Positions 1,436 to 30,223 of a DNA stretch of 32,351 bases are shown here, piece by piece. The notes beneath the pieces were generated by a model that had not been told where the DNA came from, ran no database searches, and was given only the letters and a program-made list of their open reading frames with translations. The DNA comes from an uncultured Candidatus Saccharibacteria bacterium. GTDB lineage: Bacteria > Patescibacteriota > JACPGU01. Where the stretch lies: NCBI GenBank assembly GCA_964355795.1, contig CAYHEQ010000002.1, positions 1 through 32,351 on the forward strand. The letters run 5' to 3'. Within the stretch, counting starts at the first letter, position 1, and each line of letters opens with the position of its first letter. The position numbers were made by a program, and so were the translations under genes.

Positions 1436-4400
1436 ATGCAATTAACTCTCAAATTACAAAAAGTGATCTATGGCGCTATGGTGGCGGCTATGGTCTTGGG
1501 CTTGTACTTCGCGTACAGCGCTCCAAAGGCTCTTGCCGCTCCCGCCTATGATTACAAATACATCACCCAGTCCCCATACCCTAGCAATTTGACCCCTGGT
1601 CAAGTGGTTAATGTCTGGGTTGAGGTGAAGAACACAGGCACCAAGACTTGGAAGAACGATGGGGTGAACCCAGTTCGTCTAGGCGCTGGTTCCTCATTCG
1701 GTTCATCCAGTCAGTCAAGAGACTACTCTTCCGAGTTTTATAACTCTGCAGGCTGGCTCTCTGCCAATCGCACTGTTGCTATTCGCGATGGAGTTATTCT
1801 CCCCGGTTGGCACACCAGATTTGAATTCACGATCAAGGCTCCTTCCGCTAACGGTTCCTACAAGGCCTACTTCACTCCAGTCGCCGAAGGCGCAACATGG
1901 ATGAAGGATATTGGTATGTACTGGGGCGTTACAGTTGGTGGCGGTTCTAGCGATACAGTTATTACTCCTCCTACTGGGACTGGCCTTGCTGTGTCCTTGG
2001 CTTCTGACAGCCCAGTGGCTGGTTCAGTCGCGCAAGCGGCTCAAAACGCTGTTTTCTCAAAAATCAATTTGACAGCCGGATCCGGTTCTGCCGTGACGGT
2101 CAGCTCCATCAAAGTAAAAAGAGGAGGCGTCAGCACTGATACGAGCATCTCTTCTATCAAGCTTTATGATGGTTCCACGCAAGTTGGTTCGACGCAATCG
2201 TTGAATACAATGTATGCGACATTCTCTCAATTGGCTCTAGCAATTCCAGCTGGGACCACAAAGACATTGTCTATCAAGGCTAATTTGTCTTCTACAGCCA
2301 CAGCTTCCTCTTCTATATCTTTGGGTATCAATGCTGTTGCCGATGTAGTATTGTCTGATACGGCTATCACTGTTTCTGGCTCATTCCCAGTAACCGGCAA
2401 TACCAAGACGGTAGCCAACTTTGTCGCTGGCGATGTTGATGTGGCCGCTTCTAGCACCACTCCAACTATTGCTCCTGGTTCAACCGACAACAATCTAGGT
2501 ACTTTGACTTTCACCGCTACTTCGGCTACTGAAAATATCTACCTAGATGCAGTCACTTTGACTAGTTCCGGTTCAGCTCCTGATGCTAATATTACCAATA
2601 TCACCATCAAGGACGGAGCGACTGTTTTGGGTAGCGCTTCATCTCTATCAAGCAGAAAAGCAATCATCAACCTCAACCCTGATGTCAAGGTAGTCGCTTC
2701 CGGCACCAAGACGTTGACGGTTTACGCTGATGTTTCATCTTCAACCGAAGACGCTAGAACAGTCATCCTCGGTGTTAACAAGAAAACCGATATTACCGCT
2801 TACGGCGAGGCTTCCGCTGGTGATATTACGGTTGACACCAACAGTTCGTTGACCTTCCCGGTCAATCTGGGCACTTCCACGACCAATATTGGCTCTCTGA
2901 CGGTAGCTGATGGCGCCAACAACCCATCTGCCTTGAATTATGTCAAGGGTACTACCGACAGAACTTACGAAGGAATCAAGTTCACGGCCGGTTCTGACGA
3001 GGGGATCAAGATCACCGAGCTGACCCTGACTTGTGTGGACGGAGCCACCGGTGATTGTAACGTGGACTTGAATAGCATCAAGCTATTTGACGGCGCAACG
3101 CAAGTCGGTTCCACTGGTTCATTCTCTGGCGACACCACTACCTTCTACTTGAACACGCCGATTGAAGTTGCTAAGGGCGCTTTCAAAGAGATTTTGGTCA
3201 AGGCTTCCGTTTCTATCGGCGCTACGACCAACGCTGTAACTGGTCCGCTCGTCAAGATTAACAATGTAGATACCGATATCACAGCCTATGGTCTAGCTTC
3301 CGGTATTGAATTGGCCGACGCCGCTGTTTCCGGTACTCCTACCGGCAACGCCCACACTATCGCCGCTAAGGGAACTCTCGTAGTTTCTCTGGCTTCTGGT
3401 AGTACCGCGACGGCTACTATCTCTCCGGGTATCACTGGTGTCACTTTCACGAAATTCGACCTCACGGCTGGTTCCGGTGAGGATGTCGATGTCAGCTCTA
3501 TCACTGTTCGCGCTTACGAAGTTGGCGACACTACCAACGCTGATGTTGTTGATACTAGTGAATTAGCCAATGTGAAATTGATGGACGGGACGACGCAAAT
3601 CGGTTCAGCTGTGTCCAACCCAGCCTCTGGGGTGGCTAGCTTCGCCGCTAATTTGAGAATCCCCGCTAGTAGCACTAAGACTTTGAGTATCATTGGCGAT
3701 GTGCCTTCAAGTCACGCAGTTTCAGCCACGAACACAAATTACATCAAGTTTTCTGTTCCTGGCGCTGGTACCATTGCTGACGACATTACTTCTACTGGCG
3801 TGATGTCTACTGCAGATGTCGTGGAGACTGGCGCGGCTACCGGTAATTTGATGACTGTTGCCGTCGGTACAATTGCGACTTCTATGGGAGCAACCCCAGT
3901 AGCTAGCAATATCGTTATCGGCTCGGCGGATGTGACTCTAGGCAATATTATCTTGACGGCTGGCACCGCTGAAAATGTGGTCGTCAATTCGGTCATCATC
4001 TCTAACGGTGGCGCTACTGGTGGCACTGGAGTTACTACTACCTATACTGATGTCACCAATGTAAAACTCTTCGATGGCTCTACACAAGTAGGTGACACAG
4101 TGGCTTCGCTCACCGATGTTGTCGGTGAAGATACGGCCACCTTCTCTGGTCTGGCCTTGACGCTCACTGCTGGTGGCCAGAAGGTATTGACCATCAAGGG
4201 TACTATCCCTTCTTCTGCTACGAACGCCAATAAGGTCAGCTTCGGTATCAATACTGCGGGAGACATTGATGGCACTGGTGTGAAGTCTAATACGGCGATT
4301 AGTTCTAGCGGTACCGGGTACTCTCCTATTCAGACTATTACTACCAGCACCACCTTGACTATCTCGCAACACTCTTCTACCGCAGTTACCGCGATAGTCG

Positions 4401-5485: not shown

Positions 5486-5517
5486 CAAGACCCCTTCGAG
5501 CAATCGGAGGGGTCTTG
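5486..5517 (+). terminator. Strong hairpin after the S-layer-like gene (terminator or 3' stabiliser)
   Basis: caagaccccttcga-gcaa-tcggaggggtcttg; U-tract is weak. Confidence 0.6.
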
Positions 5518-5521
5518 AGTT

Positions 5522-5582
5522 GGGGCGTGATTAATCTTTATTGTATTGATTTTCGTAGGGGCGCGATTAATCGCGCCCCTAC
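5522..5582. repeat. Composite REP unit: degenerate half REP + TATTGTATTGATTTTC linker + full 28-bp REP (5555-5582)
   Basis: GTAGGGGCGCGATTAATCGCGCCCCTAC is a perfect palindrome. Confidence 0.92.
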
Positions 5583-5616
5583 GGGGAAATTAATGTATAG
5601 ATTTCAGACAACAATT

Positions 5617-6258
5617 ATGCAGAAAGAAAAAATCCAATATATTTTCATCTATTCTATTATAGGGTTGGTTATCCTGGGCATTATCGCTGTGGGGATTTAT
5701 TTTTTCGTAGGCTATATGAAGTGGCAGGGATACAAGAGCAACCCGAATAAAAAGACATTCGCAGAAATGGTAGAAAAAATCTATCAAAAACCAAGGGGGG
5801 AAAGGACAGGGGACGACTATCTTTCTCTCGGTGGCGCTTACTATTCTTTGGGGATGTTTGGCCACGCCATTAATGCCTATAAGACTTCGGATGAGATAAC
5901 GACTAGTCCCGTGGCGCTTCGTAATATAGGCAATGTCTATAAAGATACGAAGCAATATCCAAAGGCAGAAAAATATTATCTCCAGAGTATGGAGCTGGAC
6001 CCTTCAGAAACGCAGACCTTCGTAGATCTTTTTGAATTGTATAAAATCCCATGGAATGGTCAAAAATATAGTTCTGAAACGATTTTGCAATTAGGGATTG
6101 GCAAAATGGCCGATAATACTAGTCTTTTAGCCACATTAGCTAATTATTATAAAGAAATTGGCAATAAAGAAAAAGCCATAGAATATTACCGAAAGGTCTT
6201 AAAGGTGAAGCCCAGCAATGAAGCGGCAAAAAGGGAATTGGAGGAATTATTATTGTAG
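5617..6258 (+). CDS. Membrane-anchored tetratricopeptide repeat protein
   Basis: N-terminal TM helix (YIFIYSIIGLVILGIIAVGIYFFV); TPR motifs YLSLGGAYYSLGMFGHAINAY, ALRNIGNVYKDTKQYPKAEKYY and LATLANYYKEIGNKEKAIEYYRKVL. Start at 5617 or 5593; the stop TAG is part of a REP GTAG. Confidence 0.85.
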   Translation: MQKEKIQYIFIYSIIGLVILGIIAVGIYFFVGYMKWQGYKSNPNKKTFAEMVEKIYQKPRGERTGDDYLSLGGAYYSLGMFGHAINAYKTSDEITTSPVALRNIGNVYKDTKQYPKAEKYYLQSMELDPSETQTFVDLFELYKIPWNGQKYSSETILQLGIGKMADNTSLLATLANYYKEIGNKEKAIEYYRKVLKVKPSNEAAKRELEELLL

Positions 6259-6379: not shown

Positions 6380-8497
6380 TTAACGGAGCTGATATTTCTT
6401 GATTTGTCCGTCGAGGATGAAGACGCGACTATTGCCACTCCCGTCTCCGTAATTGCCGGAAGTGACCAGAGCTTGGGGGTCGTCGAGGTGGCCAGTGCCA
6501 CTTTCTTGGCCGAACTCTCCTTTGACCACGCCTTGGTCGTCAAAGACCTGGACACGGGTTTTTTCCAGGACGAAAACCATATCGTCCTTATCCACGGTGA
6601 TGTCCACCATATCGTCGCCGAACTGGCCGGCACCGGTTCCCGGGGATCCCCATGTTTTCAGGAGAGTGGGAGCGTATGGCCATACGCCCCTACTAATCTT
6701 GACGATGCGGTGGTTTCCCGCATCCAAGATGTAGATGTCGGTCGCATTCGTGGCGGAAGCCTTGGGGGTGTCCAGATCGGCGGAATACGTCCAGATGAAA
6801 GTCCCGTTCGGTTCGTACTTCCTGACATTGCCGGCATCAGGATCGGTAATGATCCAGTTGCCATCCATATCGCATTCCAGACGGGCATTGTCTCCCGCTT
6901 CCGCGCTGAAATTTAGTTTGCGGGAGAGCGAAGAACGGTAGAAGACCGTTAGGCGATCCTGGTAGGTATCCAGGAACCCAATGAGACCTTGCGTCGCGCA
7001 GGCCGCTATGGTTGTCGGCGCCGTCACGCTGTATGGTCCGGGGCTGGTGATGTTGTAAGAGCTCCCGCCCCCGTCCACTCCGTCATCCCACAGGTAGCCA
7101 CCCGAGGGATTGCCGTCCGTGTCCTGGATGGCAAAAACATTGTTGTAATTGATGCTTTCGACAGTGCCGAAAAATCCGGCGATGTCGTTGGCGGTGCGAC
7201 CCCAGCCGAGCTCGTACTCGTATAGTCCCGTTTCCGTTCCCCCTCCGCTCGTTACCACTGTGACCGTGGTCGTGCAGGTGTTGCTCCCGCCGGTGCCGGT
7301 GACCGTGCCGGTCGCTGTGTAGGTGCCGGTCGCGGTGTAAGTCTTGCTCGTGCTCCCGCTTGCGCTGGAGTTGGAGTAAGCATTCGACCCGTCGCCGAAG
7401 GAAATGCTCATCCCCGTGAAGCCCGATCCGCTCACTGTCCAACTGATGCTGGTGGCCGAATTGACGTTCGGATTGCTGGGGCTGGCCGAGAGACTGCAGG
7501 TCGGAGCGGACGGGTTGGAAGTCTCTCCGTAGTAGATGCTGGTTGCGACTTTCGTCTGGGAATTATTCGGATCTTCCGAACTCCAGCCGGCATCGTCCAC
7601 GCACCAGATCTTGATGTTGTTGTCGCCGGAAATAAGAGAGATCTCTTGATCCCAGGAGATCCAGACATCTTGTCCGATCTTGTCGGGATCGTCGTAACTC
7701 ACCATTTCCGCTGTGGCTGAACCGATTTGCAACCATAGGTTGCAGTCGGGGCGTTTGTTGCCCCCGATTATCGGAGTGGAGTCGGTGGTTGGTGATTCCA
7801 CCGTGTCCACAATGGGTGGATCGGGGCGGGTGGTGTCCAGCGTTGTGTCAAAGATCGTTCCGCCACTGGGCCTGTTGGAGCTGTCGCGACAGACGAAAAT
7901 ATGATGATTGGGTCCCTCCACCAGGGTCAAAGAATAGACCGACTGAGTGGAGCCATCGCGATTGACAATGATCTCTTGCCCGTCCATCTCCAAAGTGGGA
8001 CAATTGCTCCCCGTTTTGAAGGTGAGGGTCATGGACGGAGTTGTCACCACGGTCGGAATCGTCCCTACGAATCCGGGCGCCGAAGGACCGCCTTCAGGGC
8101 GATTGTTGACGATGATGGTGGCCGTGTAGGGTCCGGCAGTGTTGGTGCCGTCCGTCAAGGTCGCCGAGACGCCGAAGGTGCCGGTCTGCGCGTAAAGGTG
8201 GTACTTGTTGCAGGTCGCACCTTCGATTTTTCCGCCGTCACCGAAGCTGAAGTTGCAGGACAAAGAAGCCCCCTGTTTGCCTCCTGACGGTGTGCCGGAA
8301 CAGCGAACGGAATCGTTCTGATAGATGCTGGTCGGCTCACAACCCCAGTCCAAGAGCTTCAAGGGCTTTTCTTCCGTTGGAGGTGGAGCGGAAGCGCCAC
8401 CGCCTCCGCCACAGCCGACCAGAAACAGGGAAAAAACAAGCGTCAAAATGCCCGCGACCCGGGCAGGGGTCCAACCGAAATGGTTGAATTTCTTCAT
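6380..8497 (-). CDS. Putative lipoprotein with two PKD domains, Ig-like segments and a C-terminal NHL-repeat beta-propeller
   Basis: ATG 8497 after a GGGAGG RBS; lipobox LVG-C followed by a Gly linker; PKD motifs FSFGDG…YAQTGTFGV and ISFGDG…YTATGTYTA; NHL motif WGSPGTGAGQF…DITVDKDDMVFV; visibly GC-richer than its neighbours. Confidence 0.8.
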   Translation of the reverse strand: MKKFNHFGWTPARVAGILTLVFSLFLVGCGGGGGASAPPPTEEKPLKLLDWGCEPTSIYQNDSVRCSGTPSGGKQGASLSCNFSFGDGGKIEGATCNKYHLYAQTGTFGVSATLTDGTNTAGPYTATIIVNNRPEGGPSAPGFVGTIPTVVTTPSMTLTFKTGSNCPTLEMDGQEIIVNRDGSTQSVYSLTLVEGPNHHIFVCRDSSNRPSGGTIFDTTLDTTRPDPPIVDTVESPTTDSTPIIGGNKRPDCNLWLQIGSATAEMVSYDDPDKIGQDVWISWDQEISLISGDNNIKIWCVDDAGWSSEDPNNSQTKVATSIYYGETSNPSAPTCSLSASPSNPNVNSATSISWTVSGSGFTGMSISFGDGSNAYSNSSASGSTSKTYTATGTYTATGTVTGTGGSNTCTTTVTVVTSGGGTETGLYEYELGWGRTANDIAGFFGTVESINYNNVFAIQDTDGNPSGGYLWDDGVDGGGSSYNITSPGPYSVTAPTTIAACATQGLIGFLDTYQDRLTVFYRSSLSRKLNFSAEAGDNARLECDMDGNWIITDPDAGNVRKYEPNGTFIWTYSADLDTPKASATNATDIYILDAGNHRIVKISRGVWPYAPTLLKTWGSPGTGAGQFGDDMVDITVDKDDMVFVLEKTRVQVFDDQGVVKGEFGQESGTGHLDDPQALVTSGNYGDGSGNSRVFILDGQIKKYQLR

Positions 8498-8595
8498 CAC
8501 AAACCTCCCAGCCGGCAAGCCGGCGTTTTTTTGGTTTTTCTCGCTTATAAAAGGGCGAGCGAGAGGGCGCTAGGCGCACTCTCCTTTCATGGCTT

Positions 8596-8731: not shown

Positions 8732-9997
8732 ATGCTCAAAATGTTTTTTTCTTTTCTCAAAGACAATCCTTTGGCGCGGGGGAGCCTGATTCTTTTTGTG
8801 GGTTCTTTTTTGGCCGGGGTCTTGAGCTATATTTTCAATGCCATTATGGGACGAATGTTGGGGCCAGAAGATTATGGCGCTTTCGCCTCCTTGGTATCTC
8901 TCACTTACATTACCGGGGTGCCGGCGGGAACTATCGCAGTAGTAGTAGCCAAAAAAATGGCCGAATTGCAGGCTAAAAATGAGATGACCAAAAGCCGGCC
9001 GTTCGTTGGTTATGTCGCCAAGCAATCGGCCATTTTTGGCGTTGTAGTCTTTTTGATTTTTTTGGTTTTGATCCCATTGATAATGGGGTTTTTGAAAATT
9101 GAATCTTTCTGGGCGGTTTTAATTTTGGGGCTAAGTCTTTTGGTCTCTTTCGTCTCCGCTGTGCCATCGGGAGGTCTGCGGGGGTTGGAGAAATTTTTTG
9201 AGATATCTTGGAGCTCAATTTTTTCTGCGCTAACGAGAATTGGTCTGGGCGTCCTTTTCGTTCTGGTTGGCTGGAGAGTGGCGGGAGGTCTTTTCGCCGC
9301 TTTGTGCGCTGATATTTTGGTGACCTTAGTTATTTTTCATTATTTGAGATTGCCCAAAGAAAGGACTGTTTTAGCTCGTGAAGATACGAAACTGTCGTCT
9401 TTTGCTCTGCCCGTTTTTTTTGTCACCTTATTTATGGCGGTTTTGTATAATGCCGATGTGGTCTTGGCGAAGCATTTTCTGGACACTACTAACGCCGGTT
9501 ACTACGCCATTCTTTCCTTGTTGGGCAAAATAATATTTTTTGGCACCGCCTCTATTGGCGTCGTTATCTTCCCTATTACAGCTAAAAATCATTCCTTGGG
9601 ACTAGACAATAGTCGCATCTTGAAGCTTTCCCTTTGGCTCACCTTCATCGCTTCGGCGATGGTGACCGCGATTTATTTTGTTTTTCCGGACTTGGTTATC
9701 AAGATACTTTTTGGCGCATCATACCTGCCTGTCAGCCCCTATGTGGGGCTAATGGGTATAGTCTTCGTCTTTTATTCTTTGCTCAATATTCTAGTCTCTT
9801 ACGCGCTTTCTTGTGGTCGAACGGGCATCTCTTACATTCTGGCCGGGGGCGCCTTAGTCGAGATTTTGGCGCTTTTTCTCTTTCACGGTAGCCTTGGGGA
9901 GATAATTTATGCTATGATACTGGTAATGGCGATGACGCTAGGAGGGCTGGTAATATATCTAAAGTACGGAAGGATGGTCAAAAAATGGATACTTTGA
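8732..9997 (+). CDS. Wzx/MOP-family oligosaccharide flippase
   Basis: About 12 TM helices; typical motifs GRMLGPEDYGAF, NADVVLAKHFL…AGYYA and ILFGASY. Confidence 0.88.
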   Translation: MLKMFFSFLKDNPLARGSLILFVGSFLAGVLSYIFNAIMGRMLGPEDYGAFASLVSLTYITGVPAGTIAVVVAKKMAELQAKNEMTKSRPFVGYVAKQSAIFGVVVFLIFLVLIPLIMGFLKIESFWAVLILGLSLLVSFVSAVPSGGLRGLEKFFEISWSSIFSALTRIGLGVLFVLVGWRVAGGLFAALCADILVTLVIFHYLRLPKERTVLAREDTKLSSFALPVFFVTLFMAVLYNADVVLAKHFLDTTNAGYYAILSLLGKIIFFGTASIGVVIFPITAKNHSLGLDNSRILKLSLWLTFIASAMVTAIYFVFPDLVIKILFGASYLPVSPYVGLMGIVFVFYSLLNILVSYALSCGRTGISYILAGGALVEILALFLFHGSLGEIIYAMILVMAMTLGGLVIYLKYGRMVKKWIL

Positions 9998-10944
9998 GAA
10001 AACTGATTTCTATTATTGTGCCTGTTTTTAACGAAGAGAATAATATCGGTCTTATTCATCAGGCGCTAACGAAGACCCTCCTTGAAATCCGTGATCGGTA
10101 TGAGTACGAGATATTATTCGTCAATGACGGTAGTCGAGACAATAGTGGGCTAGTTATCAAAGATCTGGCGCGGATAGACCGGAGGGTTCGTTATCTGGAA
10201 TTCTCGCGCAATTTCGGCAAGGAAGTGGCGACAACCGCCGGCATCCACCATGCTCGCGGACACGCGGTGATGATGATTGACGCCGACCTCCAGCATCCGC
10301 CGGAGCTCATCCCGGAATTTATCAAAAAATGGGAGGAAGGCGCGGAGGTGATTATTGGCGTTCGCTCCTCTTTGCGGGCCAAAAGATTAAAAAAATTAGG
10401 CTCTGTATTTTTTTACAAAATAATTAATGTTATAGGTGAGAATATCCACTTGACTCCCTTTGCCACCGATTTCAGTCTCTTGGATAGGCGAGTGGTCAAG
10501 GAATTCAACAGATTCACCGAGAGGAGCAGAATGACGAGGGGGTTGGTCAATTGGCTTGGTTTCAAAAGGGATTTCGTCTACTTTGACGCGCCCGAGAGAG
10601 CCGACGGGAAACCCGGGTACGGTGGTTGGAGGCTAATCGGGTTGGCGATGAATACTTTCGTAGCGCACAGTCTTTTTCCCTTGAAATTGGCTGGCTATCT
10701 AGGGGTTTTCATCGTTTTGATTTCTGGCGTTTTGGGTTTCTATATCTTGCTTGGTAAGTATTTTTTTCACTGGGTTTTTGCTTTGAGTTTTTCTGGACCA
10801 GCGCAATTGGCAATCCTTATCATCTTTCTGGTCGGAATCATTTTGAGCTGTCTCGGGCTAATCGCTCTTTATATCGGCGGTATTCACAGCGAGATTCTTA
10901 ATCGGCCGATTTATGTGATACGGGAAAAGCATAATTTTGAATAG
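9985..10944 (+). CDS. GT2 polyprenol-phosphate glycosyltransferase (GtrB/DPM-like)
   Basis: SIIVPVFNEE, FVNDGSRD, FSRNFGKE, IDADLQHPPE, two C-terminal TMs and RPIYVI. Confidence 0.9.
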   Translation: MDTLRKLISIIVPVFNEENNIGLIHQALTKTLLEIRDRYEYEILFVNDGSRDNSGLVIKDLARIDRRVRYLEFSRNFGKEVATTAGIHHARGHAVMMIDADLQHPPELIPEFIKKWEEGAEVIIGVRSSLRAKRLKKLGSVFFYKIINVIGENIHLTPFATDFSLLDRRVVKEFNRFTERSRMTRGLVNWLGFKRDFVYFDAPERADGKPGYGGWRLIGLAMNTFVAHSLFPLKLAGYLGVFIVLISGVLGFYILLGKYFFHWVFALSFSGPAQLAILIIFLVGIILSCLGLIALYIGGIHSEILNRPIYVIREKHNFE

Positions 10945-20304: not shown

Positions 20305-20310
20305 AGCTTC

Positions 20311-21294
20311 ATGGAAAATAATGCTGTTTCGAAAAACAAGACTGATCTAACTGATCTAGAGGATGTGGTTTGTGGTGTTTGCGGTTCTTCTGACCGGGCT
20401 CATCTTTTTGGTAACCTCGACAGGCTCCATGGTTTCCCCGGAGAATTCCAAATCAATAGTTGCCAAAATTGTGGCTTGGTCTTTCTCTCTCCTCGACCCA
20501 AAGATATTAACAAATTTTACGCAGAGGAATATGCGCCATACAATATCGATCTGAAAAATTTTCACCAGAGCCTAACTAGCAGACTGATGGAAGCTTATTA
20601 TAGCGAAAAAAAAGATTGGCCCCAAAGATTGCGGGCTGGGGCTTATCGCCTGCTTTACAATCCTTTGCCGGACAAATATCGGGGGGCAAAGATATTGGAT
20701 GTGGGTTGCGGTAATGGAGTTTTCCTTTATAATCTAAAAAGGTTTGGAGGTTTTGATCCTTACGGAGTAGACTCTTCTCAATATGCGATTTCTCAAGCGC
20801 AAACAAAATTGGGCCTGAAAAATGTTCAAGCGGGAACACTTGAGGAGTGTTTTTTTCCAGATAATTTTTTTGATATCATTACTTTGAATCATGTCGTAGA
20901 ACATCTGACTAGCCCGACAGATACCATCAGAGAAGTTAAAAGAATCTTAAAGCCTGGCGGCTCTTTGATGATGACGACGCCTAACGCCAGTAGTTTGCTT
21001 TTTGCTATTTTCCGAAAGTTTTGGTTTGCTTTGGAGACTCCCAGGCACCTCCAGATTTTTTCAGAGAAAACCTTGTCTATGATGATTGATTCAGTCGGGG
21101 GACTAAAGATTGAAAAAATCGATTATAATATATCTAATTATGTTTTTGCTAAGAGCTTGATTTATCGTTTTCATCTGGGAGATTCCTTCATGGCTCGTTT
21201 TCTAATGAAAATAAAATTCATCTTTTTGCCCTTATTTTACCTTTTGCCAAGGAAAAAACGAGATTTTGTGACAATTTATGCCAGGAAAAAATAA
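20311..21294 (+). CDS. Class I SAM methyltransferase with an N-terminal Zn-ribbon
   Basis: CGVC…CQNC, ILDVGCGNG, FDIITLNHVVEH and PRHL. Confidence 0.9.
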   Translation: MENNAVSKNKTDLTDLEDVVCGVCGSSDRAHLFGNLDRLHGFPGEFQINSCQNCGLVFLSPRPKDINKFYAEEYAPYNIDLKNFHQSLTSRLMEAYYSEKKDWPQRLRAGAYRLLYNPLPDKYRGAKILDVGCGNGVFLYNLKRFGGFDPYGVDSSQYAISQAQTKLGLKNVQAGTLEECFFPDNFFDIITLNHVVEHLTSPTDTIREVKRILKPGGSLMMTTPNASSLLFAIFRKFWFALETPRHLQIFSEKTLSMMIDSVGGLKIEKIDYNISNYVFAKSLIYRFHLGDSFMARFLMKIKFIFLPLFYLLPRKKRDFVTIYARKK

Positions 21295-21344
21295 CATGTA
21301 ATATATAATCGTATTGTTCACACTTTGGCAGATATCTCTGATAA

Positions 21345-21385
21345 GAGGTTCGACCTTGAGAATTGGCTGTTTAAGGTCGAACCTC
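21345..21385. repeat. Inverted doublet GAGGTTCGACCTT / AAGGTCGAACCTC
   Basis: Perfect 13-bp IR with a 15-nt spacer. Confidence 0.85.
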
Positions 21386-21498
21386 GGATCGGGAGCAAGG
21401 TCTTTTACAGACTAAACTATCATCCAGCCATTAAACAATTTCTAAAAGTGTAAACAACGCGACCAATTCTTACAAATAGTATTAACTTAATAGACAGC

Positions 21499-22530
21499 AT
21501 GAACAATACTCTCATCAGAATAAAACATAAATATTATCTTTACCTGGTATTTTGGGTCAAATACTTCTCTTTCAAAAAACTTTTCAATGTAGCGCTCAAC
21601 ATATACGAGAAGAAAACAAAAAAGACGACGATTCGTTCCGTCCCTTTTGTTATGCATTTTGACATCTCCAACGCTTGCGTGCTGAATTGTCCTCTCTGCC
21701 CCACCGGGAGAGGAGAACATCAAGCCAAGGGGGTGATGAAATTTGAGGATTTCAAAAAAATGTTTGACAAGGTCAAAGATTATTTGTTTGATGTGAAGCT
21801 TTTTAATTGGGGAGAGCCCTTCTTGTGCAAAGATGTTTTTCAGATAGTTGAATATTGTCACCAAAATCGCGTGGGGGTTAGATTTCACTCCAATCTCAAT
21901 TATTATACGGATGAAATCTTGGAGAATATCGTCAAATACAAGGTGGACTATCTCCATCTTTCTATTGACGGATATTCGCAAGAAGCTTACGAATTTTATC
22001 GAGTGAATGGCAATATCGCCAAAGTTTTCAAAGGAATGGAGAGGATTCAGGAATTGAAAAAGAAATATCGAAGTAGATATCCCATTATCCATTGGGGTTA
22101 TTTGATCAACAACAAGAACAAGCATGAAATAGGGCAGGCGGCCTCTTATGCGAAAAAGATAGGCGTGGAGGTCTTTGAAGCTTTCGATCTCTCCCTCTTC
22201 ACTTCTCTGAAGGATAGATACAGCAAAGAAAGCTACAACAAGTTTTTGTCTGAAGTTAATGACGAAAAACATTACAATATTATGCCGATGAAGGGCGCTT
22301 GCCCATACATCTGGATTGATTTTGTCGTCAATCCCAATGGCTCGTGTTATCCTTGCGGGATAGTCTATGAAGACGAAGACATTTTCGGCTGGGTTAATGA
22401 CGAAAAGAATATTCACGAAATTGTTAATTCTGAAATATTTGTGGAGTCTAGAAAATTATTCAAAAACAAAGATTACAAACCAAAATGCTACACCGCTTGC
22501 GATAAATGTATCTGGTTTACCAAATCTTAG
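21499..22530 (+). CDS. Radical SAM protein with a C-terminal SPASM/twitch domain
   Basis: CVLNCPLC, NWGEPFL, SIDG, and auxiliary Cys motif CPYIW…NPNGSCYPC…CYTACDKC. Confidence 0.9.
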   Translation: MNNTLIRIKHKYYLYLVFWVKYFSFKKLFNVALNIYEKKTKKTTIRSVPFVMHFDISNACVLNCPLCPTGRGEHQAKGVMKFEDFKKMFDKVKDYLFDVKLFNWGEPFLCKDVFQIVEYCHQNRVGVRFHSNLNYYTDEILENIVKYKVDYLHLSIDGYSQEAYEFYRVNGNIAKVFKGMERIQELKKKYRSRYPIIHWGYLINNKNKHEIGQAASYAKKIGVEVFEAFDLSLFTSLKDRYSKESYNKFLSEVNDEKHYNIMPMKGACPYIWIDFVVNPNGSCYPCGIVYEDEDIFGWVNDEKNIHEIVNSEIFVESRKLFKNKDYKPKCYTACDKCIWFTKS

Positions 22531-22672: not shown

Positions 22673-25438
22673 ATGGATCGCATTTGTAGCCTCACGAAGA
22701 GATATTGGGTCGTAGTTATTATTTTTCTCGTCCCTATCCCGAGCCTTTTTTGGTTGCCAGGCGATAACTATATAGCTCGCGACAATATACACCCTGTGGC
22801 TTATGATTTTCCTTCTATGTTTATACAGGCTACGCGATATTTGTATTCATGGTCTTCTGGTGGGTTGGGAACCACGAATACTGAGCCATCAGGATTTATA
22901 TTCAATTTTATTACATCCTTGCTCTTTGGGGTCGGAGGCAATGCTCACAACGCTCAAGTACTAAGCCTATATCTTGGGTCTGTTGGGGCTATATTTGGCA
23001 TGTATCTTCTTGCCAGAACGTTGAAGTTTAGCCAGCTATCCTCTATCGTGGCTGGGGTTTTTTATTTAATAAGCCCATTCGTCTTTACCGGTATGCCACT
23101 GGGTCCGGCCAATCTTAGATTAATTCCATACCACATCATAACGCCCATCATGCTAGCTGTTTTTATTAAGGCGTTGAGGTCCGAGTTTTTTAGAAAATAT
23201 TTAGCTTTATTCGGTGTCGTTTCTCTTTTTGCGACCACTAGCTATGGTAGTCTGCAATATTTCATCTTGCACCTATTGATACTTTCTGTTTATGGCTTAT
23301 TCGCCATCTTTTTGGTAATAAAGAATAGAAAAAAGCTTTTCAGGGTAGTCTTCAGATTAATAGCGCTTTTTGCGGTCTTTTTTCTAATTAATTATTATTG
23401 GCTGAGTCCGTTGGTTTTTAATTTGCAAAATGTCTACGATTCACGGAACGAACCGGGGTTCTCCGCCAATCATGACAGCGACATGACAATTGGCACAAGC
23501 GCGCAAATCGTTGACGCTCTACAAATGATGCCATATATGGCTCAAAAATATATCTCCCCCTGGATGCAGTATTACGACGAGTTTTTGCCCACAGTTGCCC
23601 TTTTCATATTTTTGATGACAATACCCCTCATCTTTTTTGATAAAGAAAAGAGAAAACTGGCTTTGTTTCCAGGTCTTCTGTTGATTGTCTCCCTGTTCCT
23701 AACAAAAGGCGTCAACGAGCCCCTTGCTTTTGTCGGGAAGGCCATATTTTCTATTAGCCCTTACTTTACTCGTCTTTTTCGCAATGTGACATATTTTGAG
23801 CTAGTGGTCGTTTTGTCATTAGCTCTGTTGGTTGGTCTATCCGTGGGGGTTGTCGCGCGTAGGATAAGGCAAAGATGGCTATTGCAATCCAGTATAATAA
23901 TTATTATAGCCATGCTGATAATACTGGGGGGGCCATTTATTACGGGTATTGTCGTTAGGCAGGTCAATAATAACGGTTCATCACAATATAATCTGGTTCC
24001 TGACTATTTCAGGGAAGCAACGGACTTTTTGAAGAACAAAAGAGAGCATAGCCGTATCAATTCAGTACCGACATTCGCTTTTCAAGATGTCGTCAATTAT
24101 TATAAGTGGGATTTCATTTATGGAGGTAAATCGCCATTCGAGTCTTTTTCCGGAAAATCTGTCTATAGACCACTATACCCCCAGTTGATCGGTATGGTCG
24201 ATCCTGTGTTAGTCAAGATTCTGCATCCACGAGACGATAATATATCAAAAGAAGAATTCAACTTTCTTTCTGCAACTGCGAATGTTCGCTACGTTACTTT
24301 CCATAAGGATACAGCCTGGGACTTCATTCGCAAAATTGATCCGGTAAAATTTTCTAATCTTGACGTAGCAGATATAGAAAAATTTCTTTCTGATGATGAA
24401 GCGCTAGAAAAGATAAAAACATTTGGAAAGATTGACGTTTATAGATTTTCAAATGACAATTTTCTTCCCCAATTCTATACGGCAAAAAACATTTTCGTTT
24501 TTGACAAGAATGATCCAGATTTTATACCAAAAACATTGTCAGACATCAGTTACCAAGTTCGTTCGGCTATTTATTTAAAGGATCGGAACAGTGGCAACTC
24601 TCCGATTGATATTTTGCTGGAGCAACAAAAAGGTGAGGACAACAAGAAGGCGGACATCAAAGAAATAGAAAGTAAGATAAGCGGTTTAGAAAAAAAACTA
24701 GCTCTTTCTCGGCAAACATCAAGCATCAAGTATGAAATTGTCAAACTGAAATCGGATTTAGAAAAAGAAAAAAGTTCTCTCCGGGATCTTGTCGTGGCGC
24801 GAACTTTGAAGCTCCCGGTTTTGGAGTTCAAAAAAATTAATCCAACAAAATATAGGGTTATGGTTCATGGCGCCAGTGACATTTTTCCTTTAGTTTTTAG
24901 CGAGAGTTTTCAGGGAGGCTGGAAGGCATACCTGGCGGATTTGGAGGCCGAGGCCTACAGAGTTAACAAAAAGGCTATAAATAATTATAAGATTTGGGAT
25001 GAGAATAGCAGAGAGCAAGCAAACAGGAAAGAGCTAGGGGAATACATAAATAGTGGCTGGATCACTAGGTTGGGGGGTGACAATATCAAGTTTATTTCTA
25101 GAAATTTTGGTGGCACAATCCAGAATGATAATTTGCCGAACGGTAGTTTTCGTGAGACATGGTTCAAGAACCCCATTGTTGGCGAGGACAATCATATTTT
25201 GACAAATATTTATGCCAATAGCTGGGTGATCAATCCAACGCAGATATGCCAGGGGAGTAACCAGTGCATCAGAAACTCCGATGGTAGTTACGATCTGGAA
25301 TTGGTGGTAGAATATTGGCCACAGAGAGTATTCTATCTTGGAATGGTTGTTTCTGGGGTGACTCTCATGGGATGTTTAGTGGCCTATTTGATGACGCTAC
25401 GGGTAATTAGCAAAAAGAAAAAGAGAAAAAAGCTATGA
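22673..25438 (+). CDS. Large polytopic membrane protein, putative GT-C fold glycosyltransferase (AftD/YfhO-like architecture)
   Basis: About 12-13 N-terminal TMs with an Asp in the first loop (ARD), a large soluble domain, a final TM and a KKKKRKK tail; family assignment is from architecture only. Confidence 0.6.
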   Translation: MDRICSLTKRYWVVVIIFLVPIPSLFWLPGDNYIARDNIHPVAYDFPSMFIQATRYLYSWSSGGLGTTNTEPSGFIFNFITSLLFGVGGNAHNAQVLSLYLGSVGAIFGMYLLARTLKFSQLSSIVAGVFYLISPFVFTGMPLGPANLRLIPYHIITPIMLAVFIKALRSEFFRKYLALFGVVSLFATTSYGSLQYFILHLLILSVYGLFAIFLVIKNRKKLFRVVFRLIALFAVFFLINYYWLSPLVFNLQNVYDSRNEPGFSANHDSDMTIGTSAQIVDALQMMPYMAQKYISPWMQYYDEFLPTVALFIFLMTIPLIFFDKEKRKLALFPGLLLIVSLFLTKGVNEPLAFVGKAIFSISPYFTRLFRNVTYFELVVVLSLALLVGLSVGVVARRIRQRWLLQSSIIIIIAMLIILGGPFITGIVVRQVNNNGSSQYNLVPDYFREATDFLKNKREHSRINSVPTFAFQDVVNYYKWDFIYGGKSPFESFSGKSVYRPLYPQLIGMVDPVLVKILHPRDDNISKEEFNFLSATANVRYVTFHKDTAWDFIRKIDPVKFSNLDVADIEKFLSDDEALEKIKTFGKIDVYRFSNDNFLPQFYTAKNIFVFDKNDPDFIPKTLSDISYQVRSAIYLKDRNSGNSPIDILLEQQKGEDNKKADIKEIESKISGLEKKLALSRQTSSIKYEIVKLKSDLEKEKSSLRDLVVARTLKLPVLEFKKINPTKYRVMVHGASDIFPLVFSESFQGGWKAYLADLEAEAYRVNKKAINNYKIWDENSREQANRKELGEYINSGWITRLGGDNIKFISRNFGGTIQNDNLPNGSFRETWFKNPIVGEDNHILTNIYANSWVINPTQICQGSNQCIRNSDGSYDLELVVEYWPQRVFYLGMVVSGVTLMGCLVAYLMTLRVISKKKKRKKL

Positions 25439-27108
25439 AAAAATTATTAAAAAAGATTTTTTCAAAAAAAGCATGGGGATATGCCCCGTACTTTTTACTT
25501 GTCTTGACGGTTGTTTTGCCTTGGTTTTTTCACTCCGGTTATCTTTTTTTCACTGATTTTGTTGTGGGGCCAAACCTACAGATCAATTGGCTTACCTCTA
25601 GTATTATATCTGATTTATTTTTAAATTTTTTTGGTCTTTTTCTTCCGCCTGATTTAGCCCAAAAATTTCTTATTACGACGATATTGCTATTTTTGGTTTT
25701 TGCCGGCAAGAGGCTCGGTTCTGTCTTATTGCCCAAAAAGCCAGCTTTAGTTTTTTTGGTTAGCGCTTTTTTTATTTTTAATCCTTTCGTCTATGATCGG
25801 ATGGGGTACGGACAATTTGGCCTTGTCTTGGCGATGGGGCTTATGACTTTTGCTGTCAGCTATCTTGTTGAGTATTTAGAAAAAAAGCAAAATAAGCAGA
25901 TTTTGCTAGCCGGTGTCTTTTCTGGCTTCTCTATACTTTTTGTTGTTCACTTTGTTTTTTTCAATCTTATTTTTTATTCCCTATTTCTTATTATCACCAT
26001 CATCAGGCGCAGAGAGTATGCGTGGAAGAAGCTCATCCCTAGTCTTTTGTTAGTTCTGTTGATTGTCTCGGCTATAAATTTCAGCTTAATTGTCGGTTTT
26101 TTTCTCAATTATTTGGGTGGCAAAGATTTTTTAAACACGGAGATTACCAGGCAAGACTTTATCGCTTTTCAAACAGTCGGTCGCGATATTTGGCAGGCTT
26201 TTTCTAATGTTTTCCTAATGGGAGGATTTTGGGGTAAAGACCAGTACCGCTATATTGATCTAACCCTTATGACTCAAAGTTGGGGCAGGAGCTTTATCAT
26301 CCTTTTGCCTATTATGATGTGGGGGGTCATCGCTACTTTTCGAGACAAAAAAAGAAAAAACTTTGCCATCGGCTTAGTGATTATAGCCCTTGTCGCGATA
26401 TTCCTAGCTCTTGGAGTTAGAACGGGCATTGGGGAGAAAGTTACTTTTTTCCTCTTTGATCGCCTGCCTTTTTATAAAGGTATGCGCGAGACGCAAAAGT
26501 GGGTTTCGGTGTTGGTAATTTGTTACGGGATGTTTCTCGCTTGGGGATTGGATGCTTTGTTCTCAACAAAGTTGGTAAAGAAGCATAGCTTTTTGTTTGT
26601 AGTTATTTTGCTAGTTACTATTGCTATGCAAGCGCCCCTGATGTTCTGGGGTATGAGAGGGCAATTTCAGCCCACCAATTATCCTGCCGATTGGCAGGAT
26701 ATAAATAAGTTTATAAAGCTAGAAAGCTACAAAGCTAAAAGTAAAGAATGCGATGAGAAGATTTTGTTCTTACCGTGGCACACCTATATGAGCTTTGGAT
26801 TTACCGGCAGAATAGTTGCAAATCCTGCTCGGAATTTTTTTCAATGCCCAGTCATTTCTGGCACCAACATGGAGTGGGGGGGGATTTATGATAATAGTGG
26901 AAAAAAGGAAGGAGAGCTAGTAAGTAAATGGTTGGACGCCAAGGGGGACACAGACCTTTTGAAGAAAAATGAGCTCAATATCGGTTACGTTATCTTGGCC
27001 AAAGATGTTGACTGGGCTAATTATTCTTGGCTGAAAGAGAGAAAGGAACAAATGATGGCTATCAGGGAGACAGATCATTTAATCCTCTATGGGGCTATCA
27101 ATGAATAA
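25435..27108 (+). CDS. Polytopic membrane protein, putative GT-C fold
   Basis: GYLFFTD first loop, FNPFVYDR, MRETQKW, C-terminal soluble domain (YPADW…ILFLPW); ATGA coupling. Confidence 0.6.
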   Translation: MKKLLKKIFSKKAWGYAPYFLLVLTVVLPWFFHSGYLFFTDFVVGPNLQINWLTSSIISDLFLNFFGLFLPPDLAQKFLITTILLFLVFAGKRLGSVLLPKKPALVFLVSAFFIFNPFVYDRMGYGQFGLVLAMGLMTFAVSYLVEYLEKKQNKQILLAGVFSGFSILFVVHFVFFNLIFYSLFLIITIIRRREYAWKKLIPSLLLVLLIVSAINFSLIVGFFLNYLGGKDFLNTEITRQDFIAFQTVGRDIWQAFSNVFLMGGFWGKDQYRYIDLTLMTQSWGRSFIILLPIMMWGVIATFRDKKRKNFAIGLVIIALVAIFLALGVRTGIGEKVTFFLFDRLPFYKGMRETQKWVSVLVICYGMFLAWGLDALFSTKLVKKHSFLFVVILLVTIAMQAPLMFWGMRGQFQPTNYPADWQDINKFIKLESYKAKSKECDEKILFLPWHTYMSFGFTGRIVANPARNFFQCPVISGTNMEWGGIYDNSGKKEGELVSKWLDAKGDTDLLKKNELNIGYVILAKDVDWANYSWLKERKEQMMAIRETDHLILYGAINE

Positions 27109-27772
27109 AAAAAAGTTTTCAAAAATATTTCAATTATTGTCCAATGATATAGCGGAATTCTTTCCCTATTTTTTCGTTTTTTATTTGATTGCCCTTATTG
27201 TTTCTGCCCTTAATGAGTCTTGGCATCTATTTTTTTATTGGCCAGCTTTCCATTTCTTTATTGTTTTATTCGCCTTAATCGCTGTTTTTTCCGAAAATGT
27301 TCGCGAACCAATCTACAGAAAAGTAAAAAGGAGCGAACAGTTAAGGCGCGACACATTATATTTTTTTTGGTCCCCCTTTGTTCTTTTTGCCTATTCACTA
27401 AGGATATTTTTCTATATGGCGACCAAGATGGCCAAGAGGCTATACCTACTTTCTATTGAGGGGTTGACCAAAAAGAATATCTTTAGGGTGACCACCATTA
27501 TTGTTGTTTTGGCCTTTGTGCTTTACGTTGGTACCGGAGTTCTGGATTCTATCACTATATTTTACGCTCTTGTAGCAATCTTTTTTCTACTAGACCTTCG
27601 CATTAGCGCGTGGGCGACATTGATACTGCTGGCTATTTGTTCAATAGCTCTAGTCTTTAAAAAAAATGGACTGGCAGAAATCAGCGCGATTTACGCTTAT
27701 TATTTTCTGATAATTACAGTGGTATCGCAGATAAAAGAAGTCTTTTTGGATGGCAAGAGCGACAAAATTTAG
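27101..27772 (+). CDS. Hypothetical integral membrane protein
   Basis: Multiple hydrophobic helices; start at 27101 overlaps the upstream stop. Confidence 0.75.
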   Translation: MNKKKFSKIFQLLSNDIAEFFPYFFVFYLIALIVSALNESWHLFFYWPAFHFFIVLFALIAVFSENVREPIYRKVKRSEQLRRDTLYFFWSPFVLFAYSLRIFFYMATKMAKRLYLLSIEGLTKKNIFRVTTIIVVLAFVLYVGTGVLDSITIFYALVAIFFLLDLRISAWATLILLAICSIALVFKKNGLAEISAIYAYYFLIITVVSQIKEVFLDGKSDKI

Positions 27773-28192: not shown

Positions 28193-30223
28193 ATGAGGTT
28201 TAATGTTAAAGAATTTTTCAGACAAGACAGCAATTTCGCGAGAATTATTTTTTCAACATTCGTTTTGATTGCGTTTTTGTTGGTCTTTAGCCCAGCGATA
28301 GCGCAATTTTTGCGTTATGACGGGGCTACCGGTGGTTGGGGTTACGGTTATGGTTACGGTTATGGTTACGGCTATGGGACCGACGCCGGATTGCTTAGTG
28401 GCTACAAGACCGACTTTAGTGATTCAGATAAGAGTGTTTATGGTCTCGGTTATGGTTATGGTTATATGGTGGCAGCTCCTGCGGGTGGCGTGGGTGGCAC
28501 CTATACTATAACTAGCGCTGATTTGGGCAATCTGTATGTTGCCGGTTTGGTTAGTATCCCTGGCACCGACCCTACGGCGGTTGCTTCGGTTACCTTCAAT
28601 GACGCTGTGACAGTAACGGCCACTGCTAGCGCAGGCACTATATCCGTAGCTATTCCCGATGGAGCTGTTTTTACAAAGACAGCTGGTGGTAACTTTGATT
28701 TTTCTTCTGTGGCCTCATCAGACCAAACTACGGCTGCTTCTGGAGCCATCAGCAACAAGACTACTCGAGGAGCCATACAATTTGGTATTTCAAGTGTAGG
28801 TCTTACTTCTAGTGTGGCTACTACCATCAATATACCGGTTGGCGCGAGTCACGATGGCACTCTTATGACTGTTTATCAGAGTGAAACGGCCGCTTCCTCC
28901 GGGTATAGTAGCGCTAGCACTTGCATCATCGGCGCTGTGACGAGTGGTTTCTGTACCTTTACTACTACCACTTTCTCCTACTTTGCTGTAGCTGAGACTC
29001 CAAGCGGTGGCGGTGGCGGAGGCGGTGGAGGTGGAGACAGTACGGCTCCAACCGGCACTATCACTATCAATAGTGGCGATGCCAGCACCACTTCAAGAAC
29101 AGTCACCCTATCCTTTACGGCTACCGATAGTGGCGGATCAGTGCCAATCATGGGTGTATCCGCTACCTCAGATTTTGCCAACGTTTCATGGGAAGCCTAT
29201 GCTTCTAGTAAAACATGGACATTAACAGAAGGGAATGGCGTCAAGACTGTTTATGTCAAATTCAAAGATTCTTCCAGCAATATCTCTTCTGCTTTCTCTG
29301 ACACCATCACGCTTGGTAGTCAAGCTACCGATCAGGTAGTAGTGGTGCCTCCAACAACGGATACCGTGGTAGTCCCACCGGAGACCACTGTTATCCCAGT
29401 AGCGCAAAGAGTGGAAAACGGCACTTATTCTTATGAATATGTCGGTCAATCCGCTTATCCGTCCAATCTTACTCCTGGCGCTACTACTGATGTCTGGATT
29501 GAACTCAAGAATACAGGTACTTCTTATTGGTACAATTCTGGTAATAGAGTAACGCGTCTTGGAGCTGGTTCCAAATTCGGCAACAAGAATCAACAGAGAG
29601 ACTATGCGAGCGAATTTAATGACATTTCATGGGTTTCCAAGAATAGACCGGTTCAAGCGAGCAAAGCCGAGACCAAGACTAATGAAACAACCAAATTTGC
29701 TTTCAAGATCAAGGTTCCTGACAAAGCAGGTACTTACAAAGCTTACTTTACTCCAGTGGTAGACGGTTATATGTGGCTAAATGATATCGGTATTTATTGG
29801 CAGGTGACGGTATCTGGGACAGCCAATACCTATGATTGGCAGTATGTTACTCAATCTCCATATCCTGCCACAATGGCTCCTGGTGCAGAAACGGATGTCT
29901 GGGTTGAGGTCAAAAATACCGGCACAAAGACCTGGATGAATAGTGGAGGTAACCCAATTCGTCTTGGCGCCGGCAGTAGCTTTGGCAACAAGAATCAGGC
30001 GAGAGACTACACCAGTGAATTCGTGGCCGGCAATTGGCTTTCTGCCAATAGGCCAGTCTCTATTCGCGACGCTTCAGTGGCTCCTGGCGCGACTACCAAA
30101 TTTGAATTCAAGATTAAGGCTCCTTCATCAGCTGGTACTTATAAGGCCTACTTTACTCCGGTAGCCGAATTCGCTACTTGGATGAGAGACATTGGCTTGT
30201 ACTGGGAAGTGAAGGTTCAGTAA
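28193..30223 (+). CDS. Secreted surface protein (676 aa): GYGYGY tracts, beta-rich domain, poly-Gly linker, Ig-like module and two C-terminal NBR1-Ig-like-type domains
   Basis: GGGAGGT RBS; signal peptide ending SPAIA-Q; the C-terminal repeats align by eye with the N-terminal domain of the 1436-5446 protein. Confidence 0.85.
   Translation: MRFNVKEFFRQDSNFARIIFSTFVLIAFLLVFSPAIAQFLRYDGATGGWGYGYGYGYGYGYGTDAGLLSGYKTDFSDSDKSVYGLGYGYGYMVAAPAGGVGGTYTITSADLGNLYVAGLVSIPGTDPTAVASVTFNDAVTVTATASAGTISVAIPDGAVFTKTAGGNFDFSSVASSDQTTAASGAISNKTTRGAIQFGISSVGLTSSVATTINIPVGASHDGTLMTVYQSETAASSGYSSASTCIIGAVTSGFCTFTTTTFSYFAVAETPSGGGGGGGGGGDSTAPTGTITINSGDASTTSRTVTLSFTATDSGGSVPIMGVSATSDFANVSWEAYASSKTWTLTEGNGVKTVYVKFKDSSSNISSAFSDTITLGSQATDQVVVVPPTTDTVVVPPETTVIPVAQRVENGTYSYEYVGQSAYPSNLTPGATTDVWIELKNTGTSYWYNSGNRVTRLGAGSKFGNKNQQRDYASEFNDISWVSKNRPVQASKAETKTNETTKFAFKIKVPDKAGTYKAYFTPVVDGYMWLNDIGIYWQVTVSGTANTYDWQYVTQSPYPATMAPGAETDVWVEVKNTGTKTWMNSGGNPIRLGAGSSFGNKNQARDYTSEFVAGNWLSANRPVSIRDASVAPGATTKFEFKIKAPSSAGTYKAYFTPVAEFATWMRDIGLYWEVKVQ

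Follow-up and report, generated by a model that had tools for sequence, protein, structure and literature searches.

We examined a 32,351-nucleotide stretch (the window) of contig CAYHEQ010000002.1, assembly GCA_964355795.1, which belongs to a groundwater member of the Patescibacteria with an 830 kb genome in 55 contigs (98% complete, 43.8% G+C). Two exported proteins encoded there, an S-layer-like protein of 1350 residues and a protein of 676 residues, share a domain of about 130 residues, and their genes flank a same-strand run of flippase, glycosyltransferase (GT2 and GT4), methyltransferase, radical S-adenosylmethionine (SAM) and GT-C genes at 8732-27772, an arrangement that an initial annotation had pointed out and that the map of open reading frames (ORFs) and Pfam matches confirms. 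The shared domain probably anchors proteins in the cell wall, as opposed to recognizing the sugar that the neighboring genes produce. For comparison we used six genomes of the order, comprising the source genome (G000) and relatives, including G002, G003, G004 and G005, that carry the label Patescibacteria.

Identity and carriers of the shared domain

The three copies of the domain lie where the initial annotation had placed them (Table 1). They translate free of stops into 130, 129 and 129 residues and align end to end, the second and third being 54% and 67% identical to the first, with a mean column identity of 77%. The whole 676-residue protein matched the Pfam family PF16158 (N_BRCA1_IG) at E 5.6e-12 and 46.6 bits, above the 28-bit cut-off; when the copies were scanned singly, copy 3 was above the cut-off and copies 1 and 2 were below it. 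An AlphaFold2 model of copy 3 is a seven-strand sandwich with a predicted local distance difference test (pLDDT) score of 95.4, and Foldseek ranked the four-tryptophan (FW) domain structures 4OLE and 6VHI at positions 1-4, with template modeling (TM) scores of 0.62-0.73, and 7VQO at position 7, at 13% identity. The best PDB match was the FW domain of human NBR1 (4OLE, E 4.6e-6, TM 0.63/0.67), followed by that of ILRUN (6VHI), and further matches were to Fn3-like accessory domains of GH3 and GH123 enzymes. On the Pfam match and the modeled fold, the repeated domain is assigned to the bacterial FW (four-tryptophan, NBR1-like) immunoglobulin-like (Ig) domains, which bears out the earlier label "NBR1-Ig-like". 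Neither SLH (PF00395) nor CWB2 (PF04122) matched any window protein or isolated domain, even at E<=10.

An alignment of 24 FW sequences showed W35, W117 and W125 to be invariant and W69 to be present in at least 90%, tryptophans that may correspond to the four of NBR1 itself, and the polar residues K28, N29, T30, D59, N73 and R74 to be invariant or nearly so. Two subtypes were apparent, of which subtype A has a seven-residue insert and includes all three window copies, while subtype B has no insert and occurs on enzymes.

A profile built from the three window copies found 14 copies in eight ORFs of the source genome (E 2.6e-77 to 1.6e-4), and 3007 representative proteins among 1.84 billion matched the FW profile at E<=1e-3, a recurrence far above chance. 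Besides the two window genes, the carriers in the source genome are a signal-peptide protein of 455 residues with two copies, a 1260-residue protein with Amidase_2, four FW copies and SpoIID (contig C12), a 771-residue S8 protease (Peptidase_S8) with two C-terminal copies, a membrane-anchored YkuD L,D-transpeptidase of 336 residues with one copy, a weak lipoprotein-like case and a fragment at a contig end, so that FW is found at the N-terminus, at the C-terminus or between catalytic domains. The available export measure, a crude N-terminal hydrophobicity, is also passed by 252 of 550 proxy genes of the source genome (46%), and the N-termini were therefore read directly; in each of the seven complete FW proteins of this genome the N-terminus is a signal or membrane segment. 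The genome-wide count on secreted proteins that the initial annotation had called for thus yielded 14 copies on eight exported carriers.

Of 170 family members, 117 were scanned with Pfam, and the following partner counts refer to these. Amidase_2, SpoIID, CHAP or M23 domains were found in 20, LysM in two, S8 (without SpoIID), Trypsin_2 or C39-like peptidases in 11, and GSDH in three. FW also occurs on LRR, RHS, dockerin-bearing and fn3 proteins, and many carriers have tandem arrays of three to eight copies. In G003 an ORF of 3289 residues (G003:C1:568069-570606) combines three subtype-A FW domains with a stretch like residues 221-377 of the 676-residue protein, and a G005 protein of 1302 residues (G005:C1:226001-246000; L025 4791-8699) joins a C-terminal FW to an unrelated body. 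Judged from these sequences, the FW module changes both terminus and carrier within the order.

Modules that share a position with FW

In the S-layer-like protein, FW occupies residues 52-181, directly behind the signal-like N-terminus. Pfam gave no family for the whole protein at E<=0.01 and nothing usable for the body at E<=10. The body consists of six repeats of about 150-165 residues (motif spacing 148-165 residues) and is rich in Thr, Ser, Ala and Gly (16% T, 11% S), acidic (94 D+E versus 56 K+R) and almost free of Cys. The protein thus has what characterizes S-layer-type proteins, namely a putative anchor with a lattice-type body, an export signal and an acidic, low-Cys composition. Between this protein and its orthologues in four other genera, identity is 59-68% in the FW part and 27-30% in the body.

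The slot that FW fills in this protein, at residues ~50-185, holds another module in homologues of the body, of which 86 were collected, 34 scanned with Pfam and all 86 searched with local profiles. Pfam found PG_binding_1 in this slot in 14 of the 34 (nine above cut-off) and three SLH domains in one, and the local profiles found FW in three of the 86 and, in 18, a module like PG_binding_1. In the same slot, after the signal peptide, many of the other 65 homologues (P0315-P0376) carry an unnamed N-terminal module of about 110 residues, with a motif that reads roughly AGDLIK...VYY...DGKRYVFPNE.TYFSWY.

The 676-residue protein ends in its two FW copies (residues 412-540 and 547-675), and Pfam at E<=10 returned nothing usable for the remainder. 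It belongs to a family, here called GYGY, in which conservation is limited to the first ~100-270 residues, the only part kept across Patescibacteria classes. This conserved N-terminus (28193-28480 and 32 relatives) consists of a basic stretch, a hydrophobic helix and a cleavage site of the type Y-A/Q-F, followed by GWGYGYGYGYG and a short Tyr/Gly/Asp-rich stretch, and may be a recognition or acceptor motif. The middle varies, with Big_2, ice-binding-like, fn3, DUF11, YDG or TSP1 domains in different members. The C-termini were scanned with Pfam in 30 proteins and with a local profile in all 32; PG_binding_1 was found there in eight of the 30 at E<=1e-3 (seven above cut-off), with one further weak case, and FW in one, the G004 orthologue, as well as in the window protein.

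Another ending, seen in nine of the 32 with the local profile, is an unnamed tandem repeat of about 55 residues, roughly GRILLQVE..G.AWYVNP......YLG.P.DAF..MR..GLG (L048:13768-15234, L041:13095-14552, L059:14356-15888 and six more loci). It occupies the slot of PG_binding_1 or FW, has no Pfam match, and is a candidate for a further wall-binding module.

The glycan gene cluster and its distribution

The two FW genes enclose a flippase, four GT2 enzymes, one GT4, four methyltransferases, radical-SAM enzymes, an AftD-like GT-C and two further membrane proteins, along with a tetratricopeptide repeat (TPR) gene, a minus-strand PKD gene, a transposase-like gene (11001-11546) and a minus-strand TIM-barrel-like gene (12677-13450). 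The cluster looks like an outer-face glycosylation or glycan-assembly system, as far as its gene content can tell; GT-C enzymes work on the outer side of the membrane. The individual features are given in Table 1.

Table 1. Features of the window, with positions counted from its first nucleotide.
Feature	Position	Strand	Remarks
S-layer-like protein, 1350 residues	1394..5446	+	signal-like N-terminus, one FW, six-repeat body
FW copy 1, subtype A	1547..1936	+	N-terminal, putative anchor position; PF16158 E 2.1e-4, 22.2 bits alone
TPR membrane protein	5515..6258	+	TPR_1 E 8.7e-19
Exported PKD-domain protein, 712 residues, lipoprotein-like N-terminus	6380..8518	-	PKD_4 E 2.9e-10
Wzx/MOP-type flippase	8732..9997	+	Polysacc_synt E 2e-16; 55% identical orthologue in G004 locus
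GT2 with C-terminal membrane part (PgfS/ArnC-like)	9985..10944	+	Glycos_transf_2 E 3.7e-29; 65% identical in G004
Variable cluster part: 3 GT2, 1 GT4, 4 SAM methyltransferases, 1 B12-binding radical SAM, 1 radical SAM/SPASM	11595..22530	+	Pfam, NCBIfam
GT-C, AftD-like, 921 residues	22673..25438	+	PF11847 (GT-C_AftD) E 2.7e-8, 32.7 bits (above cut-off of 26)
MmpA-like polytopic membrane protein, 557 residues, possible GT-C relative	25435..27108	+	NCBIfam MmpA E 9.5e-28, 97.1 bits (cut-off 210)
Polytopic membrane protein, 227 residues, no family	27089..27772	+	kept after MmpA-like gene
Exported protein, 676 residues	28193..30223	+	signal peptide, GYGYGY motif, Thr/Ser-rich body, poly-Gly linker, Ig-like domain, two FW
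FW copy 2, subtype A	29426..29812	+	PF16158 E 1.6e-5, 25.9 bits alone
FW copy 3, subtype A	29831..30217	+	PF16158 E 3.8e-7, 31.1 bits alone; copy used for model

The first GT2 of the cluster best matched the NCBIfam model PgfS (E 2.3e-65), at 220.8 bits against a cut-off of 500, and it also matched the model of the Und-P-Ara4FN transferase (ArnC-type) at E 7e-34, below the cut-off of that model, so that its sequence places it by type only, among the polyprenyl-phosphate sugar synthases. The content of the variable part differs between G000 and G004 and across 44 related loci collected from public genomes by their MmpA-like genes, in many of which a GT-C gene lies upstream of the MmpA-like gene. 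The MmpA-like protein gave nothing usable in Pfam at E<=10 but has 223 homologues at E<=1e-10, mostly labeled Patescibacteria, and the 227-residue protein matched neither Pfam nor NCBIfam and fell only into unnamed clusters of a protein atlas. The GT-C and MmpA-like genes (22673-27108) overlap by 4 bases, with four methyltransferase genes upstream. Two B12-binding radical-SAM enzymes and one radical-SAM/SPASM enzyme are encoded in and just after the cluster (16088-17545, 21499-22530, 30648-32351); the best matches of the B12-binding enzymes were C- and P-methyltransferase-type and HpnJ-type models, all below cut-off. With four SAM methyltransferases also present in the cluster, these enzymes hint that its sugar or lipid product carries unusual modifications.

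The distribution of FW does not follow that of the cluster. All six genomes of the order have 11-22 FW matches each, while searches with single proteins and with a 16-sequence family profile found the GT-C and MmpA-like genes in two (G000 and G004); the other four, which gave no match, have a completeness of 88-99%. In the source genome, the FW genes on contigs C12 and C14 adjoin unrelated genes and no glycan genes. The proposal that the domain binds the glycan of the enclosed cluster is not borne out by these results, and the co-occurrence of domain and cluster that the initial annotation had suggested examining fails within the order, where the neighbors of the S-layer-like gene are TPR and PKD genes and not the cluster. 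Co-distribution of an anchor with the genes for its cognate polymer was thus not found for this cluster, other glycan genes having been partly surveyed.

The S-layer-like gene appears, from gene order, to belong to a module of its own with the TPR gene and in part the PKD gene. The TPR gene lies directly downstream in the window and adjoins the S-layer-like gene in G002, G003 and G004, and a 59% identical orthologue of the PKD protein adjoins both genes in G002. The S-layer-like gene has no cluster beside it in G002 and G003 and is on a different contig from the cluster in G004. We considered the bracketing of the cluster by two FW genes as a conserved unit and rejected it, since G004 has the cluster on another contig than the S-layer-like gene, and no cluster adjoins that gene in G002 and G003. 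The bracket is not a conserved unit, nor does FW depend on the cluster, because FW is found in all six genomes and the cluster in two, and because the S-layer-like gene stands apart.

At the other end of the cluster it is the body of the 676-residue protein, and not its FW domains, that is linked to the glycan genes. The gene order of the window is repeated in G004, with flippase, PgfS/ArnC-like GT2, glycosyltransferases and methyltransferases, GT-C, MmpA-like gene, 227-residue protein and a 531-residue orthologue of the 676-residue protein that has one FW. Downstream sequence of 600 bases or more was available at 41 loci; in 32 of these the first exported protein after the GT-C core belongs to the GYGY N-terminal family, and in only one of the 41 does the gene after the cluster bear FW. 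The 676-residue protein is encoded by the last gene of a conserved cassette made up of the AftD-like GT-C, the MmpA-like gene, in some cases a flippase, the 227-residue membrane protein and the exported GYGYGY protein, a cassette that keeps only the N-terminal part of the exported protein and leaves its putative C-terminal anchor interchangeable (FW, PG_binding_1 or the unnamed repeat). The GYGY protein may be a substrate or a partner of the GT-C enzymes, a role that we infer from this synteny.

Within and near the cluster we also observed a 30-bp palindrome with a GCGATTAATCGC core that occurs six times (5554-5583, 6293-6322, 10950-10979, 11265-11294, 11751-11780 and ~14444-14473), and eight of the ten genome copies of its 12-base core fall in the window. 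The palindromes surround the 181-residue transposase-like gene at 11001-11546, which matched the REP-associated tyrosine transposase model at E 5.1e-15 and 55.6 bits (cut-off 80). Copies lie in frame within this ORF and within the GT2 gene at 11595-12629, where they read as GAINRAPT, a peptide also found in a protease of another Patescibacteria genome (P0015). The palindromes and the 181-residue gene fit REP/RAYT-like repeats.

FW as a candidate envelope anchor

We consider it fairly probable that FW in this lineage is a portable, non-covalent anchor to the cell envelope, and that the two FW genes and the cluster are not one system. An anchor is to be expected because two unrelated families place FW where their relatives place known wall-binding modules, because FW is fused to peptidoglycan enzymes, and because it is far better conserved than the surface-exposed parts. 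After Sec export, a terminal FW would bind a wall component present in all the relatives, most likely peptidoglycan, and would keep the remaining parts of the protein on the cell surface, whether this is the S-layer-like repeat protein, the peptidoglycan amidase/SpoIID protein, the L,D-transpeptidase or a protease. Both the binding and its ligand we infer from these patterns: the ligand must exist in all six genomes, which makes the cluster product an unlikely one, and the source genome has Mur ligases and hence makes peptidoglycan, which is thus the simplest candidate.

Several points weigh against this interpretation. Positional exchange shows equal position and not equal ligand, and the SLH domains in one homologue keep a secondary polymer possible as the ligand; SLH binds such a polymer and not peptidoglycan. 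Subtypes A (window) and B (enzymes) could differ in ligand. No recognized wall enzyme was found in 97 of the 117 scanned FW members, most of which have no other named domain, and the count of hydrophobic N-termini (140 of 158 M-starting homologues by the crude measure) is weak on its own. The six genomes of one order are kin, and their contrast of 6/6 with 2/6 provides no statistical test. A profile from the 24-sequence alignment, searched against solved structures, found no FW chain, its sole match being a legume lectin at E 0.71, so that the tie to the eukaryotic domains rests on the Pfam model and on likeness of fold at 13% identity. The FW domains with a known partner bind proteins, namely Ams1, MAP1B and TAX1BP1 (PMC9233695, PMC9582228).

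This last point leads to the idea that FW docks proteins onto proteins, as it does in eukaryotic NBR1; it could join exoenzymes and surface proteins to each other or to an S-layer lattice, or bind surface proteins of a host cell, the latter because a life attached to other microbes is assumed for these bacteria. We think this unlikely, for either set of targets. Known FW partners are indeed proteins (PMC9233695, PMC9582228), many carriers have tandem arrays, and the LRR, RHS, dockerin-bearing and fn3 proteins among them are typical of adhesion or contact, but the FW slots are filled in homologues by PG_binding_1 and SLH, which bind wall glycans, the commonest recognized catalytic partners act on peptidoglycan, and the S-layer-like protein carries FW itself and so cannot simply be the FW receptor. 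It is still less likely that FW binds the polysaccharide of the cluster, as SLH binds a pyruvylated secondary wall polymer, and that the two genes and the cluster form one system. The flanking position of the two genes suggests such a system, as does the 676-residue gene, which keeps its place after the GT-C core in G004, the sole relative with the cluster; SLH on one homologue of the S-layer-like body makes a polymer-binding anchor plausible for that family, and polymer synthesis genes have been described to co-distribute with cognate anchors (10.1101/2025.04.02.646754). This co-distribution fails here, given the completeness of the genomes without the cluster, and FW follows the cluster in a single locus of 41, is encoded on C12 and C14 away from glycan genes, and stands in an S-layer-like protein whose gene is apart from the cluster in G002 and G003. 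Least probable of all, and very improbable in our view, is that FW is a ligand-free structural spacer multiplied by duplication. The Ig-like fold, the common tandem arrays and the Foldseek matches to Fn3-like domains of GH3 and GH123 are in keeping with a spacer, but FW is terminal and not internal in both window proteins, is twice as conserved as the attached body, has a set of polar residues that hardly vary, and is exchanged with known binding modules.

A different proposal concerns the cluster and is compatible with an anchor role for FW. The cluster could be a protein O-glycosylation system whose substrates are the adjoining exported proteins rich in Thr, Ser and Tyr, above all the GYGY protein, and this we regard as possible but doubtful. 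By an equally doubtful route, the PgfS/ArnC-like GT2 would make a lipid-linked sugar; once this had been flipped, the GT-C enzymes would transfer it on the outer side of the membrane. PgfS, the best NCBIfam match of this GT2, belongs to the protein glycosylation machinery of Streptococcus mutans, and tyrosine glycosylation of an S-layer is known in Paenibacillus. The first ~100 residues, with the signal peptide and GYGYGY, are the only part of the downstream protein kept over the 32 of 41 loci, and the tight synteny of the 676-residue body with the GT-C core fits a substrate or partner role. Yet the PgfS score is far under its cut-off and an ArnC-type model matches as well, and in Mycobacteriales the AftD-type GT-C and MmpA act on wall glycans or lipids, not on proteins (10.64898/2026.07.31.741767).

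Comparison with known systems shows how far an anchor role for FW has precedents. The window domains resemble the eukaryotic FW domains (4OLE, 6VHI, and 7VQO, which is Chaetomium Nbr1 bound to Ams1) in the Pfam match, the four tryptophans and the seven-strand Ig-like sandwich; the eukaryotic domains, however, are cytosolic and protein-binding, whereas those of the window are exported, form part of surface proteins and wall enzymes, and share only 13% identity with them. PG_binding_1 (PF01471), a small helical domain, fills the N-terminal slot of FW in homologues of the S-layer-like protein and the C-terminal one in those of the 676-residue protein, and like FW it is fused to amidases in bacteria, but FW is a beta-sandwich of twice the size with no sequence similarity to it. 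With SLH and CWB2 of Firmicutes, FW has in common that it is a portable terminal module found on an S-layer-like protein and on exoenzymes of one genome, that its conservation exceeds that of the exposed body and that it is exchangeable with other anchors. Here the initial annotation, which had likened the domain to SLH and CWB2 as a portable terminal module, is supported by the exported carriers, by the presence of FW on both an S-layer-like protein and wall enzymes, and by the exchange with PG_binding_1 and SLH. There is no sequence relation between FW and these domains, however, one or two copies stand in place of the usual three, and the adjoining glycan cluster is not co-distributed. In Firmicutes, S-layer anchoring domains have been described as swappable modules common to other surface proteins (10.1101/2025.04.02.646754), a picture that our findings fit, and NBR1 and PG_binding do not appear in the main text of that study. 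Bacterial FW members have been described as showing a striking diversity of domain architecture, with FW often near the C-terminus (PMC3357945), and the bacterial examples named are cytoplasmic XRE regulators, for which the passages concerned state no function (PMC9582228, PMC3357945). A limited literature search on bacterial FW function gave only eukaryotic work and mentions of bacterial copies (PMC3357945, PMC9582228, PMC9233695).

The cassette, in turn, resembles the aftD-mmpA locus of Mycobacteriales, where aftD (a GT-C arabinofuranosyltransferase), mmpA and the methyltransferase gene mtrP lie in one conserved locus and where MmpA, poorly understood and possibly a glycosyltransferase, resembles the first 11 membrane helices of AftD (10.64898/2026.07.31.741767). 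In both, an AftD-like GT-C gene directly adjoins an MmpA-like gene, with methyltransferases nearby. The scores are low (AftD_N 32.7 bits; MmpA 97 against the 210-bit cut-off), there is no mycolate pathway here, and the Patescibacteria cassette, unlike the mycobacterial locus, adds a flippase, the 227-residue membrane protein and the exported GYGY protein. The pairing of AftD and MmpA may long predate the mycolate envelope.

The FW domain family itself was already known; what is new is its double positional exchange with PG_binding_1 and SLH, the S-layer-like protein that would be anchored by FW, and the GT-C/MmpA-like/GYGY cassette. We tentatively advance a wider proposal, which we would expect to fail in one part or another sooner than to hold as a whole. 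In it, bacterial FW would be an unrecognized class of peptidoglycan or wall anchor, the main anchor of S-layers and exoenzymes in some Patescibacteria lineages and fully exchangeable with PG_binding_1 and SLH, from which the cargo-binding domain of eukaryotic NBR1 descended, and the GT-C/MmpA-like/227-residue/GYGY cassette would be a conserved envelope-assembly system of Patescibacteria that is related to the Mycobacteriales aftD-mmpA locus and that yields the GYGY protein in glycosylated or wall-tethered form.

Ultra-small Patescibacteria are abundant and almost all uncultured, and cryo-electron microscopy shows that they have a distinct surface layer. A limited literature search found no account of how their surface proteins are held on. 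If FW is an anchor, a new type would be added to the small list of wall-binding modules, surface proteomes could be picked out in Patescibacteria genomes by means of this domain, and a possible origin would emerge for the FW domain of NBR1, the eukaryotic autophagy receptor. The exchange of FW with PG_binding_1 and SLH points to where the FW ligand should be sought, and the GT-C/MmpA-like/GYGY cassette is a separate lead that bears on the poorly understood mycobacterial MmpA.

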